A stretch of DNA of 64,000 nt, from the NCBI GenBank assembly GCA_022571515.1, contig JACZXQ010000014.1, forward strand, positions 27,913 to 91,912. The letters are read 5' to 3'. The notes under the pieces were generated by a model. That model did no database searches. It was given only the letters and a program-made list of their open reading frames with translations, and had not been told where the DNA came from. This DNA comes from Gemmatimonadota bacterium. Lineage in GTDB: Bacteria; Gemmatimonadota; Gemmatimonadetes; Longimicrobiales; Gaopeijiaceae. Below, piece after piece: positions 1,822-40,168 of the stretch. Each line of letters starts with the position of its first letter. Position 1 is the first letter of the stretch. Position numbers and translations under genes: made by a program.

Positions 1822-2892
1822 ATGGGGGATTTCGTGACGTCGGGGTTCCACCACATCACGATGGTGGCACGCGATGCCCAGCAGACCGTGGATTTCTACC
1901 GCGACCGGTTGGGCGTTCCCATTGTCAAACGGACCGTAAACTTCGACGACCCCGACGCCTACCACCTCTACTTTGGACATGAGTCGGGAGCGCCCGGCAC
2001 CATCCTCACCTTCTTCGAGTGGCCCCATGCGTCCCGCGGCCAGTTCGGTATTGGTGGAATCCATCACCTGGCTCTCTCGGTCGAGACGGTCGAGGCCCAA
2101 CTCATGTGGAAGCGCTGGCTGAACGACGCCGGCACCCCAACCACCGGTCCGTACGACCGCGGGTGGTTCAGCAGTCTGTACTTTCGCGATCCGGATGGGC
2201 AGATCCTCGAGATCGCCACCGCCGGCCCAGGCTATTCCCTCGACGAGCCACCCGATGCGCTCGGTGAGCGGGAGATCGAGCCGGCGGTCGAGCGCACCCA
2301 CGGGCACCGCGACGAAGCCGCAATCGCCGCACTCACGCATCCGGAGCCGGTCGACGCCATGACGGACGCGATGACGCTTACGGGCATCCACCACATCTCC
2401 GGGATCACGACCGACCTCGAGCGGGCGAATGAATTCTACTCGGCGGCGCTCGGGCTCCGGCTGGTCAAACGCACGGTGAACCAGGATGACGGCTCCATGA
2501 GGCATCATTTCTGGGCGCATTACGACGGGCAGAATGTGGCAGCGCGGAGCTCGCTCACGCTTTTCGAATGGCTCGACGACGGCAAGCACGCCCGGGGAGG
2601 GTACGGGCAAACCCACCACATCGCGTTTCGTGCTTCTAGCGAAGACGAGCAGCTCGCGTGGCGAGACCACCTCATCTCGCTCGGCCTCGATGTCACCACC
2701 GTTCAGGATCGCAAGTACTTCAAGAGCATCTACTTCCGCGCGCCCGACGGGCTCCTGCTGGAGATCGCCACGGATAGTCCGGGCTTCACCCTGGATGAGG
2801 ACCCGGCCGATCTCGGTACCGACCTACAGCTTCCGGCCTGGCTCGAGGATCGGCGCGACGAGATCGCCGCCCGGCTCACGCCACTACGCTGA
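1822..2892 (+). CDS. two-domain VOC-family ring-cleaving dioxygenase (MhqO/MhqA-like)
   Basis: GFHHITMVARDAQQTVDFYRDRLG...YHLYFG...IHHLALSV is repeated in the second half (GIHHISGITTDLERANEFYSAALG...HHIAFR). Confidence 0.8.
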   Translation: MGDFVTSGFHHITMVARDAQQTVDFYRDRLGVPIVKRTVNFDDPDAYHLYFGHESGAPGTILTFFEWPHASRGQFGIGGIHHLALSVETVEAQLMWKRWLNDAGTPTTGPYDRGWFSSLYFRDPDGQILEIATAGPGYSLDEPPDALGEREIEPAVERTHGHRDEAAIAALTHPEPVDAMTDAMTLTGIHHISGITTDLERANEFYSAALGLRLVKRTVNQDDGSMRHHFWAHYDGQNVAARSSLTLFEWLDDGKHARGGYGQTHHIAFRASSEDEQLAWRDHLISLGLDVTTVQDRKYFKSIYFRAPDGLLLEIATDSPGFTLDEDPADLGTDLQLPAWLEDRRDEIAARLTPLR

Positions 2893-2900
2893 CGAACACG

Positions 2901-3545
2901 GTGCTCACGTACGAAATCCGGATTCCACATGATGTCCAGGACGGAGCGCGTCTGTGCGTCCTCCTCCACGGGCGGGGAACGGACCGTCACGATCTGCTCC
3001 CGCTCGCGACTCACCTGCCGTCGGGATCGATCGTGGTCACCCCCCAAGGGCCTCACCCTGGTGCACCGTGGGGCTATGGGGCCGGTTGGGCGTGGTACCG
3101 CCACGTCGAGGAGAATCGGGTCGAGTCGGAGGGGTTCCATGCGAGCCTCGCTGCGCTCGAGAGTTTTCTCGCCGAGCTTCCGGCTATCCTGCCTGTCGCA
3201 CCCGGACCGCTCGTCCTTGGCGGGTTCTCGCAGGGCGGAACCACCTCCTTGGCCTACGCGCTGACGAGGCCCGGGACCGTCGCCTCGGTACTCGATCTCA
3301 GCGGCTTCCTGGTGGACGATACCAAAGTGCCGGTGACATCGGACGCACTCTCGGGAACGCGTATTTTCTGGGGCCACGGCACGCTGGACATGGTCGTCCA
3401 CCATTCCCTGGCGGTCTCCGGGCGGGCACTGCTCCGGTCGCTCGACGCCGACCTTACCGAGCGAGACTACCCGATGGGTCACCAGATCTCCGCGGATGAA
3501 CTGGCAGACATCACGGCCTGGTTGTCTGGGGCCCCTAGGCGCTAA
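2901..3545 (+). CDS. phospholipase/carboxylesterase-type alpha/beta hydrolase (MhqD-like)
   Basis: LLHGRGTD...GFSQGG nucleophile elbow ...HG..D near the C-terminus. GTG start. Immediately downstream of the dioxygenase. Confidence 0.75.
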   Translation: MLTYEIRIPHDVQDGARLCVLLHGRGTDRHDLLPLATHLPSGSIVVTPQGPHPGAPWGYGAGWAWYRHVEENRVESEGFHASLAALESFLAELPAILPVAPGPLVLGGFSQGGTTSLAYALTRPGTVASVLDLSGFLVDDTKVPVTSDALSGTRIFWGHGTLDMVVHHSLAVSGRALLRSLDADLTERDYPMGHQISADELADITAWLSGAPRR

Positions 3546-3640
3546 ACTGTAGACCGAAGGTCAGCAGTATCAGTAGGGCGAGGGCGAAACTTACGGTCTC
3601 CCTAATCCGTCCATTTGGGGGACTCGATCGAGGAGTACGC

Positions 3641-3940
3641 ATGGGGCCGGAATTCTGGGTGGGGATCGCCGCAGTGTTCGTAAGCGGTGGAGCCCTTGGG
3701 GCGGGCGGCGCCCTCCTGACGCAGTGGATGATCCGAAAGGTCAGCAACGAACCCGATCGTTCCTTGAGATCCGCGGATCCGCGCGCTACCGAGTTGCTCA
3801 GGGCCGAGGTCGCCGACTTGAACGAGCAGTTGGCCTCCATCCATCAGCGTTTGGACTTCACTGAGCAGCTACTGGAGGGCGCCATCCCGCTTTCGCGCCC
3901 GACTCCGAGGGTGCTGCGAAATCGGACGGACGTGGACTAG
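3641..3940 (+). CDS. small membrane-anchored protein with coiled-coil tail, unknown function
   Basis: One N-terminal TM (FWVGIAAVFVSGGALGAGGALL) followed by a heptad-like segment. No family recognised. Confidence 0.4.
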   Translation: MGPEFWVGIAAVFVSGGALGAGGALLTQWMIRKVSNEPDRSLRSADPRATELLRAEVADLNEQLASIHQRLDFTEQLLEGAIPLSRPTPRVLRNRTDVD

Positions 3941-4425
3941 CCCCCCCCCTCGCCGTCCAATTGCTCGGGCAGGGTAATGAGTTCGATAATCTTGAACCGC
4001 CGCTCCCCGACAGGAAGCTGGATCACCACTTCCTCGTCCTTGCGCGCACCGAGGAGCCCCCTTCCGAACGGCGACGCCATGGACACGTGGTCACCGTCGA
4101 GGCTCATGAAATCTCCGGCAACGATGGTCAGCGAGAGCCTCTCGTCCAGGGCAAGATCTTGGATCTCGACCTTTGACCCGAAACCGACACGGTCGCTGGG
4201 CATCTGCGACACGTCGATCTTGGACAGCTCGGCCACACGGCTGGTGAGATGCCCGAGGCGGGCCTGCACGAACTGCTGCCGCTCCAGGGCCGACTTGTAC
4301 TCCGCGTTTTCTCGGAGGTCCCCCAACTCCACGGCCTTTTGGATCCGACCGGGAAGCTCGACGTTCAATTCGTGGGTCAGGCGGGCGATCTCGTCTTCGA
4401 GCCTTGCGCGAATTTCTTCGATCAT
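3937..4425 (-). CDS. greA: transcription elongation factor GreA
   Basis: MIEEIRARLEDEIARLTHEL...AVELGDLRENAEYKSALERQQFVQARLGHL...GSKV...SMASPFGRGLLG. Start taken at Met13 of the track ORF, which has a G-rich SD 7 nt upstream. Confidence 0.9.
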   Translation of the reverse strand: MIEEIRARLEDEIARLTHELNVELPGRIQKAVELGDLRENAEYKSALERQQFVQARLGHLTSRVAELSKIDVSQMPSDRVGFGSKVEIQDLALDERLSLTIVAGDFMSLDGDHVSMASPFGRGLLGARKDEEVVIQLPVGERRFKIIELITLPEQLDGEGGG

Positions 4426-4570
4426 GGCAAACCCCCCGCGCTGTGAGGTCTCCCGGACCAATCGGCTGGACAGAACTACGTCCCAACCGAAGCCACCGAG
4501 GGGACCAGCGAAAGAAAAGAGCCGCCACCCGGGGAGAATGTCCGCAGGGGAGGCTGGTACCGTATAAGAT

Positions 4571-4616
4571 AGCGTGCCCCCCCGGCGCCGTGAAAGTCCC
4601 TCTGGGGGGGGGCGCT
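4571..4616 (-). terminator. GC-rich hairpin downstream of the amidinotransferase gene
   Basis: The arms agcgtgccccccc (4571-4583) and gggggggggcgct (4604-4616) are near-complementary. On the minus strand the hairpin follows the stop at 4643 and precedes a moderately U-rich stretch. Confidence 0.4.
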
Positions 4617-4642
4617 TCAGACCTCAGGGCGGCAAGCGGGCG

Positions 4643-5518
4643 CTATGTATAGCGCTCTAGGGGCCTCGTGAGGCAAGTGGGTCCACCTGAGCCCTTGAGA
4701 CAGATCTCGCGCGCCTCGAACTCGTGAACTTCGACCCCGGCGGCGATGAGACGCCTCATGGTCTCGGGCGCACCCGCAGCCATCACGCACACCCGCGGCG
4801 CAACGGCCAGGACGTTGCAGGCGAGACCGTCGATCTCGCTCGGGTGCGCTTCGACCAACTCGACATCCCTCGAGAGCAGGAGCTGTCGAAACGGCACAGG
4901 CAGGAGCGGTGAGTGGACCAGGGCGAGGTCCCCGCCAAGCGGGCTGAGCATCGACATCAGGTGAAACACGTCGGACGGGCCCTTCCCGTGGAGTAAGGGT
5001 ACGAGAACCATCTCCACCCCTCCAGGAAGCAACGCCCCAAATTGGCGAGCACCCTCGGCATTGGTGCGGTAACCGAGGCCCACGGCCACCGTTCGGTCAT
5101 CCAACCAGACCACGTCGCCGCCCTCCAGTCGGCCGTTGCCCTCCACTCGACCGACTACGGGGATCCCCCACTTCCGGTAGGCAGCCTCGTGCGCTTCGGG
5201 CTCACCGGCGCGCGCCGGCTTGCCCATGTTGCACAGGACGACTCCCCGGTCGGTGACCACGGAGGCATCGCGAACGTACAACGAGTCCAAGCCCACGTCC
5301 GGATCGAGGGGCAGGAACAGGCATTCGATCCTGAACCGGTCGAGTACTGTGATGAAGTCGTCGAACTCCTGGACCGCACGCTCGTAGTCAGGCGGCCGTA
5401 GATAGCCGAGTTCCTTCCACCGGCGTTCAATGCACGGGAGATCGACAAACGCTTCGCGCGCGTGCTTCACAACGACACGCCGCAGCGTGCCCACCTCGGA
5501 GTGAAACGTCGTGGTCAT
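4643..5518 (-). CDS. amidinotransferase-superfamily enzyme (dimethylarginine dimethylaminohydrolase / arginine deiminase-like)
   Basis: DSLYVRDASVV...GGDVVWLDDRTVAVGLGYRTN...C-terminal GSGGPTCLTRPL carrying the catalytic Cys motif of the guanidino-modifying family. Confidence 0.75.
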   Translation of the reverse strand: MTTTFHSEVGTLRRVVVKHAREAFVDLPCIERRWKELGYLRPPDYERAVQEFDDFITVLDRFRIECLFLPLDPDVGLDSLYVRDASVVTDRGVVLCNMGKPARAGEPEAHEAAYRKWGIPVVGRVEGNGRLEGGDVVWLDDRTVAVGLGYRTNAEGARQFGALLPGGVEMVLVPLLHGKGPSDVFHLMSMLSPLGGDLALVHSPLLPVPFRQLLLSRDVELVEAHPSEIDGLACNVLAVAPRVCVMAAGAPETMRRLIAAGVEVHEFEAREICLKGSGGPTCLTRPLERYT

Positions 5519-5571
5519 GCGGGCAATGTTCGCCCCGGCCGCCGGAGCCGCCAGGGCTGTGCGGAGGAGGA

Positions 5572-6072
5572 CTACCTCTCGAGGCGCGGATCCGGATCGT
5601 CGAGCACCGCCTGGGTTCGACCCTGCCGGTACTCGCGTACTGCCTCCCGGATCTCCGGGTATTTGGACCCCATGATCTCGCCCGCGAAGACGGCTGCGTT
5701 GATCGCACCGGCCTTGCCGATGGCGAGGGTACCAACCGGAATACCGGCCGGCATCTGTACGATGGAGAGCAGCGAATCGAGACCCTGGAGCATCGACGTC
5801 ATGGGCACGCCGAGGACCGGAAGCACGGTCTTGCCCGCAGCCATACCCGCGAGGTGCGCGGCCCCACCGGCCCCCGTGATGATCACCTCCAGGCCGCGCT
5901 CTTCGGCAGTCGATGCGTACTCGAAAAGAAGGTCAGGCGTACGGTGCCCGGAGATGATCCGAACCTCGTGTGGAATGCCTAAAGTCTCGAGCGTGTCGAC
6001 GGCGTTGCGCATGGTCTCCCAGTCCGAACGAGACCCCATGAGCACGCCGACCAAAGGGGTCGGATCGTCCAT
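5572..6072 (-). CDS. purE: 5-(carboxyamino)imidazole ribonucleotide mutase
   Basis: VGVLMGSRSDWETMRNAVDTLETLGIPHEVRIISGHRTPD...ITGAGGAAHLAGMAAGKTVLPVLGVP. Confidence 0.92.
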   Translation of the reverse strand: MDDPTPLVGVLMGSRSDWETMRNAVDTLETLGIPHEVRIISGHRTPDLLFEYASTAEERGLEVIITGAGGAAHLAGMAAGKTVLPVLGVPMTSMLQGLDSLLSIVQMPAGIPVGTLAIGKAGAINAAVFAGEIMGSKYPEIREAVREYRQGRTQAVLDDPDPRLER

Positions 6073-6130
6073 GCCCGAGGAGGTAGCACGCGGGCCATGG
6101 TCCGGTCAAGGGGTGGGCACTCGACTGTAG

Positions 6131-6387
6131 GCACAGGTATACCTCATCCCCGAGGAGCGGGCCAAGTTGGACGAAGCGGCCCGAGAGCTGGCGTGTCCCG
6201 CTCCGAGACTCTGCGGCGCGGCATCGAGACCGTGCAACGCCCACGGGCGGCAGGAGTGTTCCGCGAGCTCGTGGACGAAGGCCTGCTCACACCAGCCCTG
6301 GCTCCCGGCAGCGGCCCACCCCCGTCCGCCCCCGTGGCGACGCTCGAGGTGTTGATGTGCGAGCTCGACGCTGATCGCGCGGAGTGA
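6131..6387 (+). pseudogene. ribbon-helix-helix (CopG/VapB-like) antitoxin, apparently frameshifted
   Basis: The strand/helix-1 part VYLIPEERAKLDEAARELA is in one frame, preceded by TAG and with no start codon. The helix-2 part VSRSETLRRGIETV... is in the frame that ends at TGA 6385-6387. The two join if one base is restored near 6195. Confidence 0.5.
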
Positions 6388-6710
6388 TCATATACCTCGA
6401 CACCTCGGTGGTCCTCGCCCACCTGCTTGCGGAAGACCGGCGTCCTCCGGCCGAGCTCTGGGGCGAGGAACTCGTGGCAAGCCGGCTCTTGGAGTACGAA
6501 CTTTGGACGCGCATTCATGCCCGAGGCCTGGCCCGATCACACTCCGATGCAGTGCGCCTGTCGCTCGCCCGAATCACGTTCTTGGATCTTGGCCGCTCCG
6601 TACAAACGCGGGCGCTCCAGCCCTTCCCGGTCGCCGTCCGAACCATGACGATGTCCCGGGAGGCGCGACCGATCATCGCCCTGTGGGACAGGCCCCACCC
6701 TAGTTCATGA
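6384..6710 (+). CDS. PIN-domain (VapC-like) protein, C-terminal half atypical
   Basis: MIIYLDTSVVLAHLL is a typical PIN N-terminus, and the start overlaps the upstream stop in a 4-nt overlap. The region where the LDALHLA-type acidic motif is expected reads RTMTMSREA. Confidence 0.5.
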   Translation: MIIYLDTSVVLAHLLAEDRRPPAELWGEELVASRLLEYELWTRIHARGLARSHSDAVRLSLARITFLDLGRSVQTRALQPFPVAVRTMTMSREARPIIALWDRPHPSS

Positions 6711-34805: not shown

Positions 34806-37532
34806 CTATTCAGGCACGACGCTTACCGGGCACACCTTGAGTTCGGCGGTCTGGGTAATGGGGTCGTATCCACCACCCGTAAGCGCATTCACCGGAACGT
34901 CGGCAAAGCTGAAGGTCGTAAACACCGTGCCGCGTGGCGACCGTTTGGTGGCCTTCACGCGCACGCGCACCGAGCCTCGCCGGCTCGACATGATCGCCCA
35001 TGACCTGTCGGCCAGGCCCCACTCATCGACATCGTCGGGGTGGATCTCCAGCGACTCCTCCGACAGCAGGTAGTCGATGCCTGCCGAGCGCCCGGTCTGG
35101 GTACGCGTATGGTACGACGCCAGGCGGCGGCCCGTGGTGAGCCAGACGGGGTAGTCATCGTCCACCGTCTCGGCAGGATCGCGCTGCTCCACGAGATTGA
35201 AGATCCCCCGTCCGTTCACGAACTCGTCGGAGTGCAGCATCGGGGTCCCTGGGTGGCCGTCGAAGGGAACCGGCCACTGATACGCGCCCTCTTCGACCTT
35301 GTCCCAGTCGACGCCGTGGTAGATGGGCGATACCTCGCAGAGCTCGTTGAAGACCTGCTCGGCGCCCTCGTACTCGAAGCCCTGGAACCCCATGCGCTTC
35401 GCGAGCGCCGAGATCACCCACCAGTCGGGCCGCGCTACTCCGGGCGAGGGGACCGCGGCTCGGAGACGCTGGATCCGCCGCTCGGTGTTGGTCTGCGTGC
35501 CGTCCACTTCACCCCAAGCGGCCACGGGGAACACCACGTCCGCAAGCTCCGCGGTCTCGGTCAGGAAGAGGTCGGCGACGACCAGGAAATCGAGGCTTCT
35601 CAGGGCCTTCTCGCAGTGCGCTCGATCGGGGTCCGACACCAGCGTGTTCTCGCCATCGATGAACATCGCTCGAATCTGATCGCCGCACATCTCGAGGGCG
35701 GTCACCTTGGTGATGCCATTCTCGAGATCCACCTTCTTGCCGTACAACTTCTCGAACTTCTCCTGGTTCTCGGGATCGGTGACCGGCTGGAAGCCTGGAT
35801 AATTGTTCGGAAGGGCGCCCGCATCGCCCGCGCCCTGGATGTTGTTCTGGCCGCGCATCGGATTGATGCCGGTGCCCTCGCGGCCGATGTTGCCGGTCAT
35901 CAACACCAGGTTGCACAGGCCCTGCACGTTCTCGACACCGCAGATGTGCTCGGTCACACCTAGCGTGTAATAGATCGCGCCGCGCTCTGCCCGCCCGTAC
36001 CAGAGCGCTGCCTGTTCGATGTCGGCCGCCGGTACGCCCGTGATCTCTTCCGCCCACTCCGGCGGGAAGCGCTCCACGTGCTCGAGGAAGGCCATCCCTT
36101 CCGTCGTGCGGGCGTCCATGAAGGCCTGATCCACCAGCCCTTCACGCGCGATGACGTGCGCCATCCCGAGCAACAGGGCCGAGTCGGTACCGACCCTGAG
36201 CGGCAGGTAGACGTCCGCCAGGTCCGCGAGCACGATGTGCCGGGGGTCGGCGACGATCAGCTTCGCACCGTTGGCGAGGGCCCTCTTGATGCCCGTCGCC
36301 GCGACCGGATGACACTCCGTCATGTTGGTCCCGATGCAGAAGATCACATCGGGCTTGTCCATGTCCGCCAGCGGGTTCGACATGGCGCCCCGACCGATGC
36401 TTGCCGCCAGACCGGCGACGGTGGGGGCGTGTCAAGCACGGCTGCAGTTGTCGATGTAGCTCGTCCCCAGCCCCGCCCGCACAAACTTCTGCATCATGTA
36501 GGCGGCCTCGGTGGGCGCCCGCCCCGATGCCACCACGTAGAGGCTGTGCCGCCCGTGGTTGTCGACAGCCGCGAGCAGCCCCGCCGCCGCCTTGTCGAGG
36601 GCGTCGTCCCAGGTGGCGGGGTGAAGCTGGCCGTCGTCTCCGCGGACCAACGGCGTATCCAACCGGTCCTTGTGTCCGATGAAGTCGAAGGCGAATTGAC
36701 CCTTCACGCACAGCGCGCCGTGATTCGCGGGCCCATCCATGGCCGGCAGCACACCCACGACCTGATCGCCCCGCGTCATGAGATCGACGCTGCATCCCAC
36801 GCCGCAGTAAGGACAGATGGTGCGCGTGAGCTTGGTTTCACCCGGCACGTCCTTGCTTGCGAGCGCCTTCAAGTCGGCGAGCGCCCCCGTCGGGCAGGTC
36901 TGGATGCACTGCCCACAGAAGGTGCACGCCGAGTCTTTGAGGATTCCATCGAACTCGGTGGTGATCTGCGTTCCGAATCCCCGGTTCATCACGCTGATGG
37001 CGTAGTCGCCCTCCTGCTCGGCGCAGACCCGCACACACCGGAAACAGGAGATGCAGTTCTCATAATCCCGGAGGATGAAGGGGTTGGGGTCGTCCGGGTG
37101 GCTTGTGCCGGACTGCATACCGAGAAAGCGGCCGGTGCGCGCGTCGTAACGGTCGAGCAGCGTCGCCATCTCCCCCGACGCGTAGCCGCTCATCGGATCG
37201 ACGTCCAGATCGCGATTCTCTGACGCGACCAACTCCAAGAGCACGCGCCGATGCATGTCCAAGCGGCCACTCTTGGTGGTCACCTTCATGCCCGGGGCGG
37301 CCTTGGTCGTACACGAAGCCACCGGATTGTGGCTGCCCTCGACCTCGACGATGCACAGCCGGCATCCGCCGAAGGGCTCTAACCGCTCATCGTAGCAGAG
37401 TGTCGGGATCTCGCGCCGGTAGCGCTCCGACACCTCGTAGACGGTCTCACCCGGGGTAAAGCCGACGTCCTCTCCGTCCAACGTCATCGTGGAGAGCGCG
37501 CCGTTTCCCCCACCGTCGATGTTATCGCTCAT
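34806..37532 (-). CDS. fdhA: formate dehydrogenase catalytic subunit (FdsA/FdhA type with N-terminal 2Fe-2S/4Fe-4S domains), selenocysteine-containing
   Basis: Track ORFs 36432..37532 and 34806..36383 are in the same frame and are separated only by TGA 36432-36434. The read-through gives ...YIDNCSRA-U-HAPTVAGLAASIGRGAMSNPL, aligning with the ..ARV(U/C)H.P(S/T)VAGL...G.GAM(S/T)N active-site motif of formate dehydrogenases. Confidence 0.85.
36403..36419 (-). promoter_or_regulatory. SECIS-like hairpin 12 nt downstream of the in-frame UGA
   Basis: The mRNA reads GUCGCC-GGUCU-GGCGGC (6-bp stem including one G-U pair). The apical GGUC-containing loop resembles the E. coli fdhF SECIS mini-helix. 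Confidence 0.55.
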
Positions 37533-37533
37533 C

Positions 37534-39204
37534 TCACCTCACGCTAGTCACGTGTTGGGCGACCCTTTCAGGAAAGTACTTCACTAGGCTTTCACTGATC
37601 AGCGGTGCCGCCATGCCGAGGCCGCACGCGCTCGTCTCCTTCATGGTCTCTCCCAGGTCGCGTACCTCGTCCAGCCAGTCGGACAGTTCCTTGGGACCGG
37701 CCTTACCCGCCAGTCGCTCCGTGAGCCGTTGCGTGCCGATTCTGCAGGGGAAGCACTTCCCACAGGATTCGTGTGCGAAGAACTCCATTGCCGAATGGGC
37801 GACGTCGATCATGTCTCTCGAGTCGTCGAATACCATGATACCTCCCGCACCCAACATCGAGCCCCGCTCCCTTACGCTGGCCTCGTCCAAATCCACATCC
37901 AGGTCCTCACCCGCGAGGAAACCCCCGGAAATGCCGGCCATCGTGACGGCCTGCACATTGCGCCCCTCGTATGCGCCACCGGCCCAGTCGTCGATCAACT
38001 CGCGCAAAGGCAAGCCCAGTGGGATCTCGTAATTGCCGGGCCGCACGACATCGCCCGAGAGGCTGATGATTTTGGTGCCGGCGTTGTCACCTCGCCCAAG
38101 ACCTCGGTACCAGTCCGGCCCGTTCCTGAGGATCGGGGCACAGGCGGCCAGAGTTTCTACGTTGTTCACCACAGTGGGCAGTCCCTCGAAACCGTGCGTG
38201 ACCGGATAGGGTGGCCGGTTCCGCGGGAAGGGATGTTTTCCCTCCAGGCTGTTCAGCAAGGAGGTCTCCTCCCCGCAGATGTAAGCGCCCGCCCCTCGAC
38301 GTACGTAGAGCTTGAAGTCGACGTCGGATCCCAAGATGCCGTCGCCCAGCAGCCCTGCCGCCTCGGCCTCCGCGATCGCCGCCTCGAGTATCCCCTCTGT
38401 TTCCGGGTATTCGTAGCGGAGGTAGATGAATCCGCGCGTCGCCCCGGTCGCGAACGCGGCCAGCGCCATGCCTTCGATGACCGCGTGGGGATCGTAATCC
38501 ATAATGACACGGTCCTTGAAACAGCCCGGCTCACCCTCATCCGCGTTGCACACGATGGTCTTGGGGTCCCCGGCCGCATCGGCCACGGCACTCCATTTGC
38601 GGCCGGTGGGAAACCCAGCGCCACCTCGCCCGGCCAGCCCCGAGTCGGTGATCGTCCGGATGACCTCCGGCCCGGTCGACTCGAGCACCGCGGTCTTCAG
38701 CGCATCGTACCCTCCGCTGCTCCGGTACCCCTCCAGACCCGCGCGGCCTTCCGTTCGCATCTCGGCGAAGATGCACTCCTCGATACCCGCGGGTGCTGCG
38801 GGCGGTAGCGGTGACGGCCGGGACTCGAGGGCATCCGCGGCCAATCCGACCAGCGTGCTGCTTCCTCGCAACACCGGTACGGGCTCGTCGCAGCGGCCCG
38901 AGCACGGCATCGAGACCGCGCCGTCCAACGAGTCGAGCAGGTCCCCCGCCCCTCGCAATCGGCACACGGGCCCTGTGCAGACGCGCGGCGCCTCCAAGCC
39001 TCCGGGCTCACGCGCGAAGTGATGGTAGAACGTGACGGTGCCGAAGAGCTCCGCGATCGGAATGCGAAGGGCCTTGGCAACTCCCCGGAGCGCCTCCTCG
39101 GAGAGGTAGCCATCGCGCTCATGCAGCTCGTGCAGGAGCGGAAGCAGTGGCGCGGGTTGATCCCGCCAGCGCTCGTGCAGCTGTTCGTCGCTGGGACGTG
39201 TCAT
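37534..39204 (-). CDS. NAD-reducing formate dehydrogenase diaphorase subunit (NuoE-like plus NuoF-like fusion)
   Basis: N-terminal thioredoxin-like 2Fe-2S module (LLPLLHELHERDGYL...CTGPVC), then GLAGRGGAGFPTGRKW, CNADEGEPG and ESCGKCFPCR. Start at Met76 of the track ORF. The stop lies 1 nt before the fdhA ATG. Confidence 0.85.
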   Translation of the reverse strand: MTRPSDEQLHERWRDQPAPLLPLLHELHERDGYLSEEALRGVAKALRIPIAELFGTVTFYHHFAREPGGLEAPRVCTGPVCRLRGAGDLLDSLDGAVSMPCSGRCDEPVPVLRGSSTLVGLAADALESRPSPLPPAAPAGIEECIFAEMRTEGRAGLEGYRSSGGYDALKTAVLESTGPEVIRTITDSGLAGRGGAGFPTGRKWSAVADAAGDPKTIVCNADEGEPGCFKDRVIMDYDPHAVIEGMALAAFATGATRGFIYLRYEYPETEGILEAAIAEAEAAGLLGDGILGSDVDFKLYVRRGAGAYICGEETSLLNSLEGKHPFPRNRPPYPVTHGFEGLPTVVNNVETLAACAPILRNGPDWYRGLGRGDNAGTKIISLSGDVVRPGNYEIPLGLPLRELIDDWAGGAYEGRNVQAVTMAGISGGFLAGEDLDVDLDEASVRERGSMLGAGGIMVFDDSRDMIDVAHSAMEFFAHESCGKCFPCRIGTQRLTERLAGKAGPKELSDWLDEVRDLGETMKETSACGLGMAAPLISESLVKYFPERVAQHVTSVR

Positions 39205-39376
39205 CGTAGGGGTTTCAGGTACTGGTTGGGAGTTCAGATCGAGATCGCAGGAATGTACGGAGTCGTTAGCGCCCGCGCACGACCGCCTGGCTTGTCTCGT
39301 CTTCCCGCCTGTCCGATAATGCGATCGCACGCGAGGGACGTAGCCAATCAACGAACGCACGCGGAGCCTGCCGCTA

Positions 39377-40168
39377 ATGGAGCATGAACTCGCCGGGATC
39401 GACGGACTCCTCATCGATCTCGACGGCACGGTCTATCTCGGAGACCGCCTCCTGCCCGGAGCCGCCGACGCAATCGAATCCCTGCGGCGGTCCGGCATCC
39501 CGCTGCGATTCGGCACCAACACGACGCGCATGCCGCGCTCAGCCGTGGTCGAGGGCCTACGCACCCGAGGCCTGGAGCTGGCGGCCGACGAGATCTTCAC
39601 GGCCCCCATCGCGGCCTCGGGTTTGTTGGAGAAGCGAGGGTTGTGGAACGTTGCGCTCTATCTCCCCGAGGCGACGTACGAGGATTTCGATCACTTCACG
39701 CTGGATGACGCAGCCCCCCAGGCGATCATCGTCGGAGACCTCGGCCGTGGCTGGAACTTCGACTTGATGAACCGGGCGTTTAGGCAGATCCGTGGGGGAG
39801 CCGAATTCGTGGCCCTCCACCGCAACCGCTACTGGGAGACGTCCGAAGGACCGACCCTGGACGCAGGAGCGTTCGTGGCAGCTTTGGAGTTCGCGTCCGG
39901 CCAAGAGGCCACCCTGGCCGGCAAGCCCAGCCCAACCTTCTTTCAGTCCGCGGCCGACTCGATGGGGATCGGTCTGAGTGCGATGGCGGTCGTCGGGGAC
40001 GACATCACCACCGACGTCGCCGGCGCCCGTGCCTGCGGGGCGAAAGGCGTATTGGTGCGCAGCGGCAAGTTCCGCCCGGACGACCTGGAGCTGTCGGGGC
40101 CCAAGCCCGACCTGATCCTCGACTCACTGGCCGGGCTCCCGACAGCCCTCGGCGCCCCCTATGGATGA
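39377..40168 (+). CDS. HAD-IIA family hydrolase (NagD/LHPP-like)
   Basis: LLIDLDGTVY...RFGTNTT...GKP...VGDDITTDV. Confidence 0.75.
   Translation: MEHELAGIDGLLIDLDGTVYLGDRLLPGAADAIESLRRSGIPLRFGTNTTRMPRSAVVEGLRTRGLELAADEIFTAPIAASGLLEKRGLWNVALYLPEATYEDFDHFTLDDAAPQAIIVGDLGRGWNFDLMNRAFRQIRGGAEFVALHRNRYWETSEGPTLDAGAFVAALEFASGQEATLAGKPSPTFFQSAADSMGIGLSAMAVVGDDITTDVAGARACGAKGVLVRSGKFRPDDLELSGPKPDLILDSLAGLPTALGAPYG

Follow-up and report, generated by a model that had tools for sequence, protein, structure and literature searches.

Does the TGA triplet that interrupts a formate dehydrogenase (FDH) gene of an uncultured Gemmatimonadota bacterium end a protein, or is it read as selenocysteine (Sec)? The question is raised by a 64,000-nucleotide stretch of contig JACZXQ010000014.1 (positions 27,913–91,912, referred to below as the window), which carries on its minus strand two long open reading frames (ORFs) that together resemble fdhA, the gene for the FDH alpha subunit. 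No bacterial selenoprotein is more widespread than FdhA. On the sequence evidence, the locus is very probably one fdhA gene in which codon 367, a UGA, is decoded as Sec by means of a hairpin that lies downstream of it in the mRNA; recoding of this sort is familiar. The host, placed by its named relatives in the order Longimicrobiales (Gemmatimonadota), is a metagenome-assembled genome (MAG) of 3.84 Mb in 95 contigs, with 96% completeness and 64% GC; the coordinates of all features are collected in Table 1.

Continuity of fdhA across the UGA

The upstream ORF (36432–37532, minus strand) encodes 366 amino acids (aa) and is closed by the TGA at 36434–36432, and the downstream ORF (34806–36383, minus strand) encodes 525 aa in the same frame, with an ATG at 36383. 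Only the TGA and 48 nt (16 codons) separate the two, and all of the coordinates given for this arrangement in the original prediction are right. The minus strand at the site reads GAC AAC TGC AGC CGT GCT TGA CAC GCC CCC ACC GTC GCC GGT CTG GCG GCA AGC ATC GGT CGG GGC GCC ATG TCG AAC. When the TGA is translated as U, a product of 908 residues with zero further stops is obtained, in which the site is NCSRA-U-HAPTVAGLAASIGRGAMSN. The gene is therefore continuous in frame from end to end, and public collections store its halves (36435–37532 and 34809–36383, minus strand) as separate proteins.

The joined product has the domain content of a complete FDH. The Pfam domains occur in the order Fer2_4, Fer4_Nqo3, Molybdop_Fe4S4, Molybdopterin, and Molydop_binding; the first three make up a NuoG-like 2Fe-2S/4Fe-4S region (residues 15–285), and the Molybdopterin domain spans residues 290–713. 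NCBIfam TIGR01591 (formate dehydrogenase subunit alpha) is matched over the entire profile (1–672 of 672) with 729.7 bits, above the curated equivalog cut-off of 666.25. The top relatives in the PDB are 7vw6/7e5z (E = 8e-191) and 6tg9 (E = 3.5e-183), which align over residues ~11–907. In these comparisons U367-H368 aligns with Sec140-His141 of Escherichia coli FdhH (1aa6, in which Sec is printed as X within ARVxHGPSVAGL), and U367 aligns with the ligand Cys of both T. kivui FdhF (7qv7_S; ARLCHAPTVAGLA) and M. extorquens FDH1 (7vw6_A; TRLCHASSVAAL). The UGA thus occupies the catalytic Sec/Cys position, as had been proposed from the letters of the gene. The accompanying proposal of a NuoG-fused enzyme with a NuoE/NuoF-type partner agrees with the domain searches on FdhA and on the product of the adjacent gene, fdhB.

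The UGA is conserved among homologs. In 40 relatives from the same order, each ortholog that spans the site at 71–97% identity has exactly one in-frame TGA, whereas homologs of ~40% identity have none; in these Cys-type homologs the aligned codon is TGC or TGT. A wider alignment of 28 orthologs was assembled from Gemmatimonadota, Poribacteria, Latescibacterota, a Syntrophomonadaceae MAG (43% identity), and a Chloroflexia MAG (40% identity), and TGA is found at the aligned codon in every member, down to 40% identity. At codons +2 to +4, inside the interval that separates the called ORFs, Ala, Pro, and Thr are retained although all four synonymous codons are in use. The retention of these amino acids despite synonymous variation shows that translation continues through the UGA.

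Three further observations concern this codon and its surroundings. The two codons that precede the UGA (−2 and −1; 36435–36440, minus strand) are nearly fixed, with Arg as CGT in 26/28 and Ala as GCC in 24/28; recoding of the UGA may require a particular context here, or the codons may belong to a lower SECIS (Sec insertion sequence) stem. An fdhA ortholog on a 1.38-Mb contig of another Longimicrobiales MAG (L063:4001–6711) has five stops in addition to the Sec codon, probably as a result of frameshift errors in a long-read assembly or because the gene has decayed. In another family of the order (locus L039, genome G026), a shorter FdhF-like homolog (694-aa frame, 44% identity) is found that is without the NuoG-like N-terminus, its match beginning at query residue 287; it has the same TGA, followed by a hairpin GUCGUC-GGUCU-GGCGAC, in which the changes keep the pairing.

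The hairpin downstream of the UGA

The hairpin described in the original prediction is found at exactly the position given for it (Table 1), and its claimed likeness to the SECIS of E. coli fdhF is borne out by conservation, covariation, and spacing. When nucleotides are numbered from the U of the UGA, GGUC occupies nt 22–25 both in the window gene and in E. coli fdhF, for which the comparison sequence has 100% identity within the annotated fdhF of 5419 genomes. G23 and U24 of the window hairpin correspond to 36412 and 36411.

Among the 28 orthologs the GGUCU loop is unchanged. Over the 6-bp stem, 99.4% of the alignment cells are paired, as against 17–73% in controls that displace the 3′ partner by 1–3 columns. 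Stem pair 3–15 is CG in 17 sequences, UA in 10, and GC in 1, and pairs 2–16, 4–14, and 5–13 have one-sided changes that keep pairing, with a single G·G exception. RNAalifold recovers the same helix unprompted from the full 264-column alignment. These data establish that the hairpin is conserved and that its stem covaries.

Codon usage points in the same direction. Codons +5 to +9 (VAGLA) are each spelled with a single codon in 9/9 in-family sequences, as compared with 1/29 of the other conserved degenerate columns (Fisher p = 2e-5). In the 28-ortholog alignment, Gly+7 is always GGT and Leu+8 is always CTG, whereas three or four different codons occur at Gly+13 and at Gly+15. The constraint at VAGLA acts on the RNA and not on the protein, because Cys-type genes spell the same residues with other codons (GTG GCC GGA CTG GCG or GTG GCC GGG TTG GCT).

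A lower SECIS helix, formed by CGCCCC with GGGGCG in the minimum free energy (MFE) structure, was also considered and was set aside. Poribacterial sequences need a 2-nt shift of register to form it and RNAalifold does not predict it; the lower helix is unsupported in a constant register across phyla.

Decoding of the UGA and the alternatives

All of the genes that would be needed for Sec incorporation, for which a genome search had been suggested together with the prediction, are encoded by the host, each above its curated cut-off: selA (546 bits), selB (316 bits), selD (383 bits), and tRNA-Sec (68.4 bits against a gathering score of 47). The tRNA-Sec has the anticodon UCA, an 8-bp acceptor stem, and a long variable arm. 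The 642-aa SelB product has Beta-barrel_SelB, SelB-wing_2, and SelB-wing_3 domains, the latter two being the mRNA-binding winged helices. FdhD is encoded as well. The selD gene has an in-frame TGA of its own, where the product reads SHGAG-U-ASKLG.

In the mechanism that these components suggest, SelD would supply selenophosphate and SelA would make Sec-tRNA-Sec. SelB loaded with Sec-tRNA-Sec would bind the fdhA hairpin through its C-terminal winged-helix domains and would deliver Sec to the ribosome in competition with release factor 2 (RF2). FdhA, with 908 residues, would then form the catalytic subunit of a cytoplasmic, NAD(P)-linked and Mo- or W-dependent FDH whose only other subunit is FdhB, a NuoE/NuoF fusion. 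Sec367 would ligate the Mo or W of the bis-molybdopterin guanine dinucleotide (bis-MGD) cofactor, and electrons from formate would pass along the 4Fe-4S/2Fe-2S chain of the NuoG-like N-terminus to flavin mononucleotide (FMN) in FdhB and from there to NAD(P)+. The physiological direction of the reaction and the nucleotide specificity are presumed.

The TGA could have a trivial origin. In a MAG of 95 contigs, a sequencing or assembly error might conceal a true TGC or TGT, or a recent nonsense mutation might have produced a pseudogene. Such an origin is vanishingly improbable, as the TGA stands at the same codon in 28/28 orthologs, which come from independent assemblies and five phyla; the identical 366-aa product ending at the TGA is found on seven contigs from three sources (NCBI, ENA, and Logan assemblies); purifying selection is seen on both sides of the TGA and within the 16-codon gap; and the full Sec machinery is present. 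It is also extremely unlikely that the UGA truly terminates translation and that the enzyme is genuinely split into a 366-aa Fe-S polypeptide and a 525-aa molybdopterin polypeptide restarted at ATG 36383, with no Cys or Sec ligand. The calling of the fragments as separate proteins in public collections would suit a split enzyme, and the N-terminal half is named "(2Fe-2S)-binding protein" in a 97%-identical relative (MCH7565680.1). However, the amino acids encoded by the 16 intervening codons are conserved while the codons themselves vary synonymously, and the catalytic His368 lies among these residues, as does the VAGL motif of solved FDHs. The break would fall inside the molybdopterin domain and the metal ligand would be lost, and termination leaves both the downstream hairpin and the Sec machinery unexplained.

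A third alternative accepts read-through and differs in the amino acid inserted, which would be Trp, Gly, or Cys through a genome-wide code change or near-cognate suppression. It is established that low selenium can give Cys or Trp at a Sec-UGA in some bacteria. Nevertheless, the position is that of the canonical Sec/Cys ligand, and the genome, at 64% GC, has a dedicated tRNA-Sec(UCA) along with SelA, SelB, and SelD, so that insertion of one of these other residues is very unlikely. A genome-wide code change is excluded because TGA is otherwise the commonest stop of the genome, where it closes 984 of 1741 long frames; the adjacent fdhB itself ends with TGA.

Decoding of codon 367 as Sec has, for its part, to be weighed against several points. 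We infer from sequence that Sec is actually inserted, and the NAD(P) linkage and the identity of the metal (Mo or W) are suggested by homology only. Taken by itself, the hairpin does not stand out from chance: a local fold of 61 nt that includes the TGA has z = −0.5, with 61 of 200 dinucleotide shuffles folding at least as well, and the single-sequence MFE structure around the TGA has a different apical pairing. Folding of single sequences is uninformative in GC-rich (64% GC) coding DNA, so comparative data were relied on; the significance of the hairpin comes only from such comparative evidence, in which covariation is carried by one pair with double changes and the independent events are few because the double changes are common to related sequences.

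The Rfam comparison and the distribution of selA belong among the same points. No Rfam SECIS family reaches its gathering threshold in the 64-kb window or in a permissive 141-nt search; in the latter, SECIS_3 (RF01989) scores 39.8 bits (E = 3.5e-8) over model positions 1–59 of 59 against a gathering score of 63, and SECIS_2 (RF01988, fdhF-like) scores 17.6 bits against 70. The bulged U17 of the fdhF-type SECIS is not found here, where, in the best-supported helix, U17 pairs with G31 (A31 in three sequences); the Rfam register that bulges U17 leaves two non-canonical pairs. The co-occurrence of selA with TGA-type fdhA is modest: selA is present in 9/10 relatives with TGA-type fdhA and in 15/30 other relatives (Fisher p = 0.03), and the sole TGA-type-fdhA relative without selA is an 88%-complete MAG of 830 contigs. 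The association is no stronger because Sec use is widespread in the order. Across the 41 genomes compared (the host and 40 relatives), 25 have selA, and since 15 of these are without TGA-type fdhA, the lineage must also use selenoproteins other than this one.

The selD gene of the host offers an observation of its own. Downstream of its UGA lie two hairpins, ACUCGGC-AUG-GCCGAGU (nt 12–28) and GCGCA-GGUUC-UGCGU (nt 31–45), and the GGUC/GGUCU loop of fdhA, which was sought after this UGA, was not found there. The same SelB would therefore have to accept a different SECIS.

Table 1. Positions of fdhA, its recoding elements, and associated genes. Positions are those of the window unless another contig is given.
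Feature	Position	Strand	Description
fdhA	34806–37532	minus	Read as a single 908-codon gene, formate dehydrogenase alpha subunit; stop TAG 34806–34808
UGA (U367)	36432–36434	minus	Predicted Mo/W ligand; aligned with Sec140 of E. coli FdhH; TGA in 28/28 orthologs
SECIS upper hairpin	36403–36419	minus	GUCGCC-GGUCU-GGCGGC; 6-bp stem, 5-nt loop; starts 12 nt past the TGA
Match to whole Rfam SECIS_3	36379–36437	minus	RF01989; UGA, lower region, and apical hairpin
fdhB	37534–39429	minus	NuoE-NuoF fusion; 2Fe-2S_thioredx, Complex1_51K (FMN/NAD(P)-binding), SLBB, NADH_4Fe-4S
selD	G000:C15:16834–17754, outside the window	minus	Itself a selenoprotein gene; in-frame TGA

The fdhBA unit and its relation to known formate dehydrogenases

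The fdhB gene is located upstream of fdhA, and its TGA stop lies one base ahead of the fdhA ATG; the two genes are translationally coupled. FdhB matches the NCBIfam families nuoF_fam and formate dehydrogenase gamma, in both cases under the equivalog cut-off. The mechanically called fdhB ORF has 631 aa from GTG 39429. The true start probably lies downstream of this GTG, because the ORF is ~70 residues longer at the N-terminus than a poribacterial FdhB homolog of 558 aa and its first Pfam domain begins only at residue 85. The flanking genes encode a HAD hydrolase, a glyoxalase-family protein, a fatty-acid desaturase, and an ion channel. No further nuo genes were found among the neighbours of the pair, and fdhBA is therefore a stand-alone two-gene unit; for the same reason, the possibility that FdhA and FdhB are subunits of complex I was dropped.

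In a maximum-likelihood tree of FdhA, from which the interrupted L063 ortholog was excluded, the Sec-type proteins of Longimicrobiales, Candidatus Poribacteria, and Candidatus Latescibacterota group in a single tight clade (stem 1.62, support 100/100). Identity within the clade is 67–80%, whereas the Cys-type homologs of the same order are 37–42% identical and fall outside it. The covarying stem pair is C-G in most Gemmatimonadota, and U-A in most Poribacteria and in Latescibacterota. It is conceivable, though with chances that fall a little short of even, that the Sec-type fdhB-fdhA cassette, SECIS included, has moved between phyla while the SECIS stem co-evolved. The selenoprotein gene would in that case be passed on together with its recoding signal, as one portable unit, among uncultured lineages in which the Sec trait was already present. 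A poribacterial chromosomal locus (L050) is arranged differently from the coupled fdhBA of the window: fdhB (760–2436) is followed by a 332-aa gene (2822–3820, plus strand), a member of the plasmid pRiA4b ORF-3-like family (PF07929, E = 1e-65), and then by Sec-type fdhA (3974–6691).

The main value of these results is for annotation. Because public calls divide the gene into two proteins, the formate metabolism and the selenium dependence of MAGs of Longimicrobiales, Poribacteria, and Latescibacterota go unnoticed. Sec decoding is documented as common in this order of Gemmatimonadota, and a well-conserved SECIS variant is added, one in which U17 is paired instead of bulged and which is missed at the curated thresholds of Rfam. 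General knowledge of selenoproteins or of FDHs is unchanged by the finding.

Among known systems, E. coli FdhH (FdhF, Sec140; 1aa6/1fdo) has the aligned Sec-His motif, in the form ARV-U-HGPSVAGL as compared with SRA-U-HAPTVAGL here, and in both genes the SECIS is in the coding region right after the UGA. E. coli FdhF, however, is without the NuoG-like N-terminal Fe-S region and acts in the formate hydrogenlyase complex rather than alongside a NuoE/F subunit. In the fdhF hairpin, an A-U pair closes a loop of 4 nt and U17 is bulged, whereas the window hairpin has a 5-nt loop (or GUC closed by G·U) and a paired U17. With Rfam SECIS_3, the whole 59-nt model aligns and the consensus is near-identical around UGAC.CG.CCC.AC and GCC.GUC.GGC, but five of the model pairs are non-canonical here, including two below the bulged U of the model.

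The protein architecture is shared with the tungsten enzyme FDH1 of M. extorquens (Fdh1A/Fdh1B; 7vw6, 7e5z) and with R. capsulatus FdsA (6tg9), both of which join a NuoG-like N-terminus to the FDH module; the former also has a NuoE/NuoF-type partner subunit. In these two enzymes the ligand is Cys (TRL-C-HASSVAAL) and the genes are without SECIS, in contrast to the predicted Sec and the SECIS here. The statement in the original prediction that the well-studied NAD-linked examples use Cys is true of the solved structures, but the novelty that it implied was overstated, because Sec-containing enzymes of the FdhAB architecture had been described before. The FdhAB enzymes of Moorella thermoacetica (Moth_2312–2314, NADP-dependent) and of the Chloroflexi single amplified genome (SAG) An-B22 are cytoplasmic, heterodimeric, NAD(P)-dependent, and Sec-containing (PMC5736913); both come from phyla other than that of the window organism. 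Compared by description, the beta subunit of the Chloroflexi FdhAB has the same series of thioredoxin-like 2Fe-2S, NAD(P)/FMN, SLBB, and 4Fe-4S domains as FdhB, whereas that of M. thermoacetica is described as dissimilar (PMC5736913). FDHs purified from Eubacterium acidaminophilum and Clostridium autoethanogenum contain Sec and W and have flavin subunits that resemble NuoF (PMC6288185). Beside these enzymes, the fdhA of the window is almost certainly a true selenoprotein gene with a true SECIS, and it is ordinary in kind.

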